Shown here one piece after another: positions 1,247 to 2,278 of a stretch of DNA of 28,677 bases. The notes beneath the pieces were generated by a model. That model was not told the DNA's origin, did not search any database, and was given only the letters and a program-made list of their open reading frames with translations. The stretch is taken from contig CAZGSG010000029.1 of the NCBI GenBank assembly GCA_964528095.1, forward strand, positions 1 through 28,677. The letters are read 5' to 3'. Within the stretch, counting starts at the first letter, position 1. Every line of letters begins with the position of its first letter. Origin of the DNA: an uncultured Terrimonas sp. (lineage in GTDB: Bacteria; Bacteroidota; Bacteroidia; Chitinophagales; Chitinophagaceae). The translations under genes were made by a program, and so were the position numbers.

Positions 1247-1391
1247 TAGTGCGAGTACGATAATCCTGGATACCTGGTATAACCAGGGCCTGTTTTATCC
1301 GGGCCATAGTAGTTGGAAATCCTGCAAAACCGATACGATAGAGGAGCCTTTGCCTTCAACACAATGGGATAAATGATAAGCGATACTATGT

Positions 1392-1583
1392 GTGCCTGAA
1401 AAAATATTTTTAAAATTCTTAATGATTTATTTGGCAGCATCAAAAAAATATATTCATCTTTGCACTGCAAAACAAAATTTTAAAACACAGATGACCCGCA
1501 TACAATTACATATAAAAAATGCAAATTGGTTTAGTCCCAAAGGGGATTATACAATGAGCGGGGCAGGTGCTGCTGTAGAATAA
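1392..1583 (+). CDS. Small hypothetical ORF (63 aa), followed by an intrinsic terminator.
   Basis: ORF track plus a terminator 30 nt downstream. AT-rich region, so it could be non-coding. Confidence 0.2.
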   Translation: MPEKIFLKFLMIYLAASKKYIHLCTAKQNFKTQMTRIQLHIKNANWFSPKGDYTMSGAGAAVE

Positions 1584-1612
1584 GTTGAAAGAACGAATTC
1601 GATAGAATACAC

Positions 1613-1643
1613 GCCCCGCAAGAGATTGCGGGGTTTTTGTTTT
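1613..1643 (+). terminator. Rho-independent terminator: stem ccccgcaa/ttgcgggg, then TTTTTGTTTT.
   Basis: Sequence acgccccgcaagagattgcggggtttttgtttt. Confidence 0.7.
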
Positions 1644-1760
1644 AATAATCAGCCGGTTCAATACACATGTAGATGAATGGTATTATAACCCCTGATTGAA
1701 TTTTTAAAAACGAATAAATAATAAAGATTGATCAAACAAACACAACATATTTTATTTACA

Positions 1761-1889
1761 ATGGCAGGTACACTGAATGTATTTGTCTCGTTAGAAAATA
1801 CTGACAGCCTGCATTGTAATACACGACCCATAGTAAGTATGAATGATAATATTCAGCAACGACCGAGTTATGCCCGGACAGGTAAGTAA
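1761..1889 (+). CDS. Small ORF, 42 aa (MAGTLNVFVSLENTDSLHCNTRPIVSMNDNIQQRPSYARTGK). It ends 19 nt before a strong terminator.
   Basis: Hand translation: ATG at 1761, TAA at 1887-1889. Not in the ORF track because it is under 60 aa. Confidence 0.2.
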   Translation: MAGTLNVFVSLENTDSLHCNTRPIVSMNDNIQQRPSYARTGK

Positions 1890-1907
1890 CCTGCCAGACA
1901 ACAAGTA

Positions 1908-1938
1908 GCCCGGTCGCAAAACGACCGGGCTTTTTTAT
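1908..1938 (+). terminator. Rho-independent terminator: stem gcccggtcg/cgaccgggc, loop caaaa, then TTTTTTAT.
   Basis: Sequence gtagcccggtcgcaaaacgaccgggcttttttatg. Confidence 0.75.
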
Positions 1939-1982
1939 GTGAAATATCCATGGAGTTTGTTTGGGATAAAGAAGGAGGATGT

Positions 1983-2123
1983 ATGAAATTTTTAATTGCC
2001 GTATTGATGATTCATCTCATCGTGGCCCTGCTTGACAACAGGATAAAACAAAAGAATTCGAACAAGGCGGAAAAAACCCCGGAGGAGACAATAAAACATC
2101 CTGCGGAGTTCCTGCTCAGGTAA
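1983..2123 (+). CDS. Small single-TM peptide, 46 aa (MKFLIAVLMIHLIVALLDNRIKQKNSNKAEKTPEETIKHPAEFLLR), preceded by a strong Shine-Dalgarno AAGGAGGA.
   Basis: SD at 1971-1978 with a 4-nt spacer to the ATG. Hydrophobic N-terminus followed by a charged tail. Its own terminator lies 30 nt downstream. Confidence 0.35.
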   Translation: MKFLIAVLMIHLIVALLDNRIKQKNSNKAEKTPEETIKHPAEFLLR

Positions 2124-2153
2124 AATACAGATGCAGAAAGGAGGAATAAAGCT

Positions 2154-2186
2154 GTCCCCCGTGAGATGCAACGGGGGCGCTTTTTC
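2154..2186 (+). terminator. Rho-independent terminator: stem cccccgt/acggggg, then cgcTTTTT.
   Basis: Sequence gtcccccgtgagatgcaacgggggcgctttttc. Confidence 0.65.
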
Positions 2187-2278
2187 TAATGCATTAAAGA
2201 AAAAACGAAATGGCATCAGTTGATTTAACCTAATAGACCTGTATATGAAAACAACACCGGGTTGGCACCGGTGTAAAT

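Follow-up and report, generated by a model that had tools for sequence, protein, structure and literature searches.

Among the transcription attenuators that respond to translation stress are the Bacillus bmrB-bmrCD and vmlR leaders, Listeria lmo0919 and Pseudomonas PA5471.1-armZ (for the last, see PMC13041342). Control of supernumerary tRNA arrays and of the RNA ligase RtcB is known for few systems: enterobacteria use RtcR and tRNA fragments, and Anabaena uses the repressor TrcR. In the latter case, translational stress induces a long cyanobacterial tRNA array together with rtcB, by way of a repressor and promoter repeats (PMC8421152; PMC10272220). The locus described here lies in a stretch of 28,677 nucleotides (nt) from an uncultured Terrimonas sp. 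(contig CAZGSG010000029.1), referred to below as the window, in which three small open reading frames (ORFs), each with a hairpin behind it, precede an array of tRNA genes and a set of RNA-repair genes. We call the three ORF-plus-hairpin units U1, U2 and U3, and their ORFs upstream ORFs (uORFs) 1 to 3. On balance we think it probable that positions 1399-2190 form the leader of a single transcription unit, in which U1 and U2 look like ribosome-dependent transcription attenuators gating the tRNA array and the RtcB genes. If this is true, such genes would be under a third and simpler logic of control, a leader that acts purely in cis and reads ribosome performance.

Like the leaders of the bmrB-bmrCD type, U1 and U2 combine a short leader ORF with a terminator and a predicted, mutually exclusive antiterminator, and have no run of regulatory codons. 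In the known systems the position of the ribosome decides read-through, and the same is proposed for the window. The cargo also differs, because the bmrB-bmrCD type controls antibiotic efflux or ribosome-protection genes rather than a tRNA array and RtcB-type repair genes. Unlike those leaders, the window has two unrelated putative attenuators in tandem, with the stop codon in a hairpin that the antiterminator would enclose, and it comes from Bacteroidota. The classical amino-acid operon leaders (trp, his, thr and leu) have, like the window, a leader ORF and an intrinsic terminator, and alternative hairpins of the kind predicted here, but the window lacks tandem regulatory codons and its downstream genes are not biosynthetic; weak Rfam matches to Trp and Thr leaders at the U1 and U2 terminators (T1 and T2) reflect the terminators only. 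Rfam searches of 1200-2800, at gathering scores and at E<=10, returned tRNAs and sub-threshold terminator look-alikes only, and no Rfam 15 hit in 1390-2190 was better than E = 0.17, all of them being far below the gathering score. As in Anabaena, same-orientation supernumerary tRNA genes are linked to RtcB and the expected inducer is impaired translation. Control in Anabaena, however, is exerted at initiation, by direct repeats and a repressor, whereas the control elements of the window would be uORF/terminator modules in the leader. We found no description in the literature of uORF attenuators placed before tRNA arrays or RtcB operons.

A scan of a genome collection with the AAA ATPase that follows the tRNA array gave 441 relatives, of which the best 80 (61-70% identity, all Chitinophagaceae-type; loci L001-L080) were compared, the units being counted by BLASTN and profile searches. 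U1 (approximately 1399-1643 in the window) occurs in 68 of the 80 loci, the 3′ part of U2 in 60, and the 3′ motif of U3 in 42 in addition to the window; no locus has more than one copy of any of them, and all lie on the same strand as the ATPase (+). Carriers in culture include Niastella vici, N. caeni, Terrimonas pollutisoli, Lacibacter luteus, Puia dinghuensis and Longitalea luteola. Where a related locus has enough upstream sequence, U1 is nearly always kept (68 of 70 loci; two are without it). Unit order was scored in 68 sequences, comprising 67 loci and the window: U1>U2>tRNA in 23, U1>U2>U3>tRNA in 22, U1 only in 9, U1>tRNA in 7, U1>U2 in 4 and other orders in 3. The order U1>U2>(U3)>tRNA accounts for 45 of the 68, and the remaining sequences are subsets of the same order, with one exception. 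The general layout is U1, U2, (U3), tRNA array, AAA ATPase, RNaseH-like protein, SPFH protein and RtcB.

The original prediction, made from the window alone, had treated the small ORFs as real and the region as a specialised cassette, and the conservation of the ORFs bears this out. It had also raised a foreign origin, which finds no support: the cassette is chromosomal, is a regular part of the related loci and was not found in viral contigs, where the U1 terminator string is absent and nhmmer detected no U1, U2 or U3 in the viral loci retrieved. The pattern used for the U2 hairpin is a generic palindrome. The remainder of the contig carries ordinary polysaccharide biosynthesis genes, and the locus belongs to a part of the chromosome devoted to RNA repair and not to a prophage.

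Evidence that the three units belong to one leader comes from the distribution of promoters and from two loci in which a terminator stands close to the ATPase gene. With the pattern TTG, 17-23 nt, nAnnTTTG, positions 1-9000 of the window contain a single + strand match, the promoter of U1 (Table 1), from which transcription is predicted to start at approximately 1467-1470. The pattern precedes U1 in 66 of 67 loci, whereas the sequence from U1 to the ATPase gene, 119 kb in total, has only eight matches. The terminators of U1 and U2 thus lie between their leader ORFs and the downstream genes with no intervening promoter of the one type scanned. In L044, 27 nt separate the end of the U1 terminator from the start codon of the ATPase, and in L065 the corresponding distance from the U2 terminator is 31 nt; transcription of the ATPase operon in these loci therefore needs terminator read-through, which in turn argues that U1 and U2 are cis-acting leader elements rather than stand-alone genes. 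The idea of three independent units or small-RNA genes, put forward originally, does not survive the finding that only U1 has a conserved promoter and that terminators can adjoin the next gene. The opposite outcome, which the same prediction had named as counting against it, namely hairpins within one long leader, comes close to the comparative picture.

Within U1, the length of uORF1 is 28-32 codons in all 68 sequences, and the start codon is ATG in 66. Its frame is free of stops in 68/68, compared with 13/68 and 1/68 for the other two frames, and composition-matched shuffles stay open 17% of the time. Insertions and deletions come in multiples of three, with compensating frameshifts in two loci. 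The three codon positions nevertheless vary equally, giving no 3-base periodicity, and a CxxC motif of the consensus is missing in the window and in several relatives. The frame is under selection and the peptide much less so; a frame kept open without codon periodicity is the usual signature of a regulatory uORF. The 63-amino-acid (aa) ORF proposed initially was a GTG-initiated frame at 1392-1583 that crosses the promoter, and the conserved ORF is the 30-aa one that begins with the ATG at 1491.

The structural elements of U1 are superimposed on this frame. Hairpin P1 has changed on both sides at all seven of its pairs, and its covariation score was reached by 0/500 shuffles. The terminator scan defines T1 as a stem-loop at 1613-1634 with 9 base pairs (bp), six of them GC, followed by TTTTGTTTTA; T1 is 91% paired in the alignment, and its covariation was likewise reached in 0/500 shuffles. 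Between the two, a segment named R2 repeats the 3′ arm of T1 and can pair with its 5′ arm, with 90% of cells paired over the seven pairs. The synonymous sites of codons 24-25 (GGG GCA), which lie in R2, are conserved, and the stop codon follows R2 by 16 nt in 48 of 58 sequences. The stop codon itself is contained in hairpin P3, for which covariation was reached by 0/500 shuffles on four of five measures, with 10 double changes at pair 126-154. RNAalifold applied to the whole U1 alignment recovered the terminator only.

U2 has an unrelated sequence and the same design. Its uORF2 is open in all 37 sequences, in the frame that reads the corresponding segment R2′ as Arg-Pro, over 48-74 codons (31 in one locus that is cut at the contig start). 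The family consensus is MLKQLRHKRF...WY.Q...PIGNENDS.HKRPD.IHT*, and the 42-aa ORF described at first, from the ATG at 1761, is the inner part of this conserved ORF of approximately 51 codons, which in the window starts at the TTG at 1728 and encodes 53 aa. The distance from the start of R2′ to the stop codon is 15-30 nt, and the terminator follows 20-35 nt beyond the stop. R2′, CGACCG(G) in the family, complements the 5′ arm of T2 in 89% of cells, with the five core pairs present almost always. T2 is a stem-loop at 1907-1931 with 10 bp, eight of them GC, followed by TTTTTT; it is 99.8% paired in the alignment, with covariation reached in 0/500 shuffles. At the position of the uORF2 stop, relatives have hairpins of unrelated sequence, as judged by eye and without scoring.

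T1 and T2 thus have the form of intrinsic terminators, with stems of 9 and 10 bp, each followed by 5-6 T. Positions 1-6000 of the window contain 15 terminator-like sites, against 4.5 ± 2.4 in shuffled sequence. Of the three canonical terminators claimed originally, all exist as stem-loops with T tracts on the + strand, but the third, T3, is weaker than claimed, with four T in most relatives.

Table 1. Positions of the leader elements and of the genes that follow them in the window
Feature	Position	Strand	Basis or remark
A/T palindrome AAAAAATATTTTT	1399-1411		upstream of promoter; candidate UP element or operator
Bacteroidota-type promoter (TTG, 21 nt, CATCTTTG)	1431-1462	+	conserved in U1 alignment; pattern scan
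uORF1, 30 codons (MTRIQLHIKNANWFSPKGDYTMSGAGAAVE)	1491-1583	+	ATG start; A-rich leader, no Shine-Dalgarno; alignment of 68
Hairpin P1 within uORF1, codons 14-20	1532-1549	+	covariation
R2, GCGGGGC, uORF1 codons 23-25, copy of T1 3′ arm	1558-1564	+	proposed antiterminator 5′ strand; complementary to 1613-1619
Hairpin P3 (GAAU/AUUC plus GUU/AAC) with uORF1 stop codon 1581-1583	1578-1600	+	covariation; enclosed by proposed antiterminator
Terminator T1 (GCCCCGCAA/UUGCGGGGU plus U tract)	1613-1643	+	terminator scan, covariation
uORF2, 53 codons from TTG	1728-1889	+	relatives start with ATG, GTG or TTG
R2′, CGACCG, copy of T2 3′ arm	1860-1865	+	pairs with 1911-1916; proposed antiterminator 5′ strand
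Hairpin (CAGGU/ACCUG) with uORF2 stop codon 1887-1889	1879-1893	+	fold; between R2′ and T2
Terminator T2 (AGCCCGGUCG/CGACCGGGCU plus U6)	1907-1937	+	terminator scan, covariation
Strong Shine-Dalgarno AAGGAGGA	1970-1977	+	5 nt before uORF3 ATG
uORF3, 46 aa: hydrophobic N-terminal helix, variable charged middle, C-terminal HPAE(F/H)xLR before stop	1983-2123	+	26 related loci
U3 3′ motif: TGCAG, hairpin 2156-2177, short T run 2181-2185	2132-2186	+	alignment; 42 loci plus window
tRNA Pro(UGG)-like	2279-2351	+	Rfam, 50.9 bits
tRNA Gln(UUG)	2454-2525	+	tRNA array
tRNA His(GUG)	2530-2603	+	tRNA array
tRNA Phe(GAA)	2633-2706	+	tRNA array
AAA ATPase	2726-3802	+	first protein gene after leader
RNase H-like protein (PF04308)	3824-4333	+	domain scan

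The strongest argument that this design is functional is that two unrelated units share it: in both U1 and U2 a copy of the terminator arm lies in the ORF, the stop codon comes 14-16 nt later inside a hairpin, and the terminator follows. Both ORFs are short, kept open and startable (68/68 and 37/37). To approximate the nascent RNA, the minimum-energy fold of the stretch from R2 to just before the 3′ arm of the terminator was computed for every homologue. In these folds the partner of R2 is the 5′ arm, without exception in U1 (66/66) and in U2 (51/51), whereas full-length folds that include the 3′ arm give the terminator in 45/66 and 50/51. For U1 of the window the two states are at -25.8 and -28.0 kcal/mol, and the computed folds would be near-isoenergetic and mutually exclusive, as expected of an attenuator.

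In the model that we favour, one long transcription unit would begin at the U1 promoter, pass three checkpoints, and run into the tRNA array and the AAA ATPase and RNaseH-like genes, and in most relatives on into the SPFH and RtcB genes. A free R2 would capture the 5′ arm of the terminator as RNA polymerase makes it, giving a long antiterminator stem that also encloses the stop-codon hairpin, and transcription would continue. A ribosome that follows close behind the polymerase and reaches the stop codon would cover R2 and the stop-codon hairpin, or would have just unwound them, and the terminator would form. Efficient translation would then switch the operon off, and slow, stalled or missing ribosomes, as might result from damaged tRNAs, ribotoxins or antibiotics, would switch on the spare tRNAs and repair genes. 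The conservation and order of the units, their open frames, helices and complementary segments, and the terminators next to the ATPase gene are observations. From the anatomy of the leader, together with established attenuator biology, we infer which way the switch works, what stress it answers and that the window's own tRNAs are co-transcribed.

As for the signal, uORF1 has no cluster of codons for a sensed amino acid and no runs of any single codon. The possibility that uORF1 tests for the tRNAs encoded in the array was rejected, since 45% of its codons match these tRNAs and 42% of those in the ATPase gene do. The lack of codon runs and the failed match together suggest that general translation performance is most likely what is sensed. 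Such a signal would fit the cargo, given the induction of the Anabaena array and rtcB by translational stress. Residues 2-20 of uORF1 include a mean of 15 different amino acids, against 11.7 ± 1.4 expected, although this variety is only a hint.

Several observations weigh against attenuation by ribosomes. The columns in which R2 and R2′ pair with the 5′ arms of T1 and T2 are nearly invariant, and their covariation is not above that of shuffles. The T2 5′ arm has changed from G to A in six loci, where the 3′ arm compensates and R2′ does not. R2 would lie just 5′ of the footprint of a terminating ribosome rather than under it, so that the switch rests on timing and steric exclusion that we infer. 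As the codons of uORF1 do not match the array tRNAs, no specific sensed tRNA can be named. The absence of recurring promoter-like sites between U1 and the ATPase gene applies to the one promoter type that was scanned; other types were not searched. Finally, the third hairpin is predicted to be a poor terminator in most relatives.

The third checkpoint begins with a strong Shine-Dalgarno (SD) sequence, AAGGAGGA, before a 46-aa ORF. The original prediction had identified both, and had regarded such an SD as exceptional for the lineage; all of this is confirmed. It is the only perfect AGGAGG before any of the 27 window ORFs checked, the other genes of the window having the A-rich, SD-less leaders expected for Bacteroidota, and it is conserved, with AAGGAGG or AAGGAAGG standing 3-10 nt before the uORF3 ATG in 26 related loci. 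The product in these loci is mostly 42-47 aa long, and two shorter copies (31 and 34 aa) lack the HPAE(F/H)xLR motif. The HPAE codons vary synonymously, and the uORF3 peptide is therefore constrained at the amino-acid level. A homologue search with the 46-aa peptide found an identical NCBI entry only, exact look-ups of the ATPase and the peptide gave no record, and the peptides of the small ORFs had no match in Pfam.

The 3′ motif of U3 begins approximately 10-15 nt downstream of uORF3 and includes a further, exposed SD-like copy of AAGGAGGA, at 2138-2145, that has no ORF behind it. In the hairpin, the loop GUGAGAUGCA is near-invariant, and covariation of the inner helix was reached in 0/500 shuffles. 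The terminator scan describes T3 (2156-2177) as 7 bp, six of them GC, followed by CGCTTTTTCT; the four T of most relatives pair with the upstream A-rich strand, making T3 only in part an intrinsic terminator. In L003, L066 and L077 the motif lies directly 3′ of the U2 terminator, leaving no space for uORF3. The U3 checkpoint is clearly functional, and two mechanisms are possible for it. Many relatives, but not the window, also have a conserved AGTTCTTTGAT box after the U3 hairpin, which does not fit the TAnnTTTG promoter box.

The ribosomes of this lineage hide their anti-SD under bS21, bS18 and bS6, and in Flavobacterium johnsoniae there is a single strong SD, belonging to rpsU, which is used only by ribosomes that lack bS21 (PMC9976891, PMC13000453). 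As in the autoregulation of rpsU (bS21) in Flavobacteriia, the window has a strong, conserved SD where ribosomes normally hide the anti-SD, and an SD of this kind is expected to be read mainly by ribosomes without bS21. By analogy, the conserved SD may tie the U3 checkpoint to ribosome composition. Unlike that of rpsU, the SD of the window precedes a membrane-type peptide of 46 aa in an operon leader, and there is a second SD-like copy without an ORF; the connection to bS21 would follow from the analogy. Such a family-wide conserved strong SD before a peptide ORF, outside rpsU and in an SD-blind lineage, could be a natural probe of anti-SD exposure.

Alternatively, the layout of U3 resembles that of arrest peptides that sense membrane insertion. 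Like SecM, MifM, VemP and TnaC, uORF3 is hydrophobic towards its N terminus and ends, right at the stop codon, in a conserved motif, and structured RNA with an SD-like sequence lies 10-30 nt downstream. In contrast to these peptides, uORF3 has no similarity to known arrest motifs, and the SD-like sequence has no ORF.

A possible connection to the anti-SD comes from F. johnsoniae cells with an ablated anti-SD, in which growth suppressors were obtained in a Walker-A ATPase-like gene, Fjoh_0136, as loss-of-function and 'leader' mutations, two of the latter lying approximately 19 and 31 nt upstream of the start (PMC13000453). Fjoh_0136 might be an orthologue of the window ATPase family with a similar leader. 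A broader proposal, possible but in our view doubtful, is that the leader acts as a multi-input checkpoint on the translation machinery, with the uORF attenuators, uORF3, the orphan SD-like hairpin and the Fjoh_0136 suppressors all in the same circuit. The pair of uORF attenuators would respond when ribosomes fall behind RNA polymerase, e.g., after tRNA cleavage, and uORF3 and the orphan SD-like hairpin would detect an exposed anti-SD (through loss of bS21) or failed membrane insertion. Only then would the spare tRNAs, the AAA ATPase/RNaseH-like pair and RtcB be made.

There are other possible scenarios. The units could be trans-acting genes whose products work with, say, the ATPase, the RNaseH-like protein or RtcB, these products being three small proteins or, for U1, a stable RNA of approximately 175 nt ending at T1. 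The terminators would then do no more than end these genes. U1 does have a promoter of its own and ends in a strong terminator, leader RNAs that have been terminated often accumulate and can have two functions, and the HPAExxLR motif and hydrophobic helix of uORF3 are conserved at the amino-acid level. Nevertheless, we consider a role in trans unlikely: U2 and U3 have no promoters of the type scanned, T1 or T2 adjoins the ATPase start codon in L044 and L065, the uORF1 peptide is weakly constrained and has lost its CxxC in the window and several relatives, and the presence of terminator-arm copies in two unrelated units would go unexplained.

Another scenario is that U1 and U2 sense a metabolite or an RNA, with binding rather than ribosome position setting the choice between terminator and antiterminator. 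The receptor would consist of P1, P3 and a conserved ACAUAU.GAA stretch, and the ligand might be a small molecule, a tRNA or a tRNA fragment. This would produce the same alternative folds as ribosome-dependent attenuation, and is consistent with the several covarying helices and with conservation at the nucleotide level without codon periodicity; moreover, the Rtc operon of E. coli and Salmonella is reported to be turned on by damaged tRNA fragments (PMC7790460). However, a pure aptamer would not be expected to keep an ORF with such a strict start, frame, length and stop position (68/68 and 37/37 sequences) and with compensating frameshifts, there is no match to an Rfam family, and the helices are short and simple, which makes this scenario quite unlikely. 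It is very improbable that the hydrophobic 46-aa product of uORF3 acts as a type I toxin under an antisense or overlapping small RNA, as was first suggested, since, for all that it is small and has one predicted membrane helix, a charged tail and strong translation signals, no minus-strand promoter-like site of the type scanned faces its ORF in the window, the minus-strand matches in relatives are scattered and often inside tRNA genes with no conserved antisense promoter among them, its fixed position and orientation in an operon leader in 26 loci are not toxin-antitoxin-like, and it has no Pfam or PADLOC match. In practice, the three ORFs are best annotated as leader ORFs, and not as hypothetical proteins or toxins.

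The tRNA array of the window has four genes (Table 1). The first has the anticodon stem-loop of a Pro(UGG) tRNA and was found by Rfam but missed by ARAGORN in the window; relatives have copies that are nearly identical (up to 99%, in L061), some of which are identified as tRNA-Pro(tgg). Most related loci carry an array between U1 and the ATPase, of up to 16 genes, with 6-16 in 38 loci. The commonest tRNAs are Phe(GAA), Lys(UUU), Asn(GUU), Gln(UUG), Arg(ACG), His(GUG), Ile(GAU), Asp(GUC), Ser(GCU) and Glu(UUC), and an unusual Ile(UAU) is also prominent; no Thr tRNAs were present in the arrays of the related loci. Many of these isoacceptors are those attacked by known anticodon nucleases. A long run of supernumerary tRNA genes on one strand near RNA-repair genes characterises a tRNA L-array (PMC8421152), and the arrays of these loci have this form, although the window itself has only four such genes.

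Downstream of the RNase H-like gene, the window has a WYL/WCX regulator on the opposite strand, followed by genes for an SPFH protein and the RNA ligase RtcB. RtcB is present in 52 of the 59 loci with at least 6 kb after the ATPase gene, and in 35 of these 59 the order ATPase, RNaseH-like, SPFH and RtcB is found on one strand; the WYL gene is rare. Comparison of the neighbouring proteins with Pfam, NCBIfam and PADLOC revealed no known defence system. The A/T palindrome upstream of the promoter has a core, AAAAATATTTTT, that is exact in 17/68 homologues and has at most one mismatch in 35/68, which is weak evidence of conservation because the region is A/T-rich. It could be a UP element or an operator, e.g., for a regulator like the WYL protein.

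Directly upstream of U1, at 410-1246, lies a gene for a 278-aa protein with no match in Pfam, NCBIfam or PADLOC. Homologues (39-48% identity) occupy the same position in L004, L009, L040 and L051, and occur elsewhere upstream in L022 and L048. Finally, we note a non-coding stretch of approximately 390 nt at 5700-6090, between the WYL gene and the SPFH and RtcB genes. No TROVE (Ro60) domain was detected in the eight long ORFs scanned in the first 11 kb. The stretch contains a tRNA-like element at 5915-5977 (32 bits with the Rfam tRNA model) and a sub-threshold match to the Y RNA-like family YrlA at 5881-5946 (34 bits, where the gathering score is 69; E = 2e-5). It is conserved at the DNA level in approximately 50 of the 80 loci, and may serve the RtcB genes as a Y-RNA-like partner.

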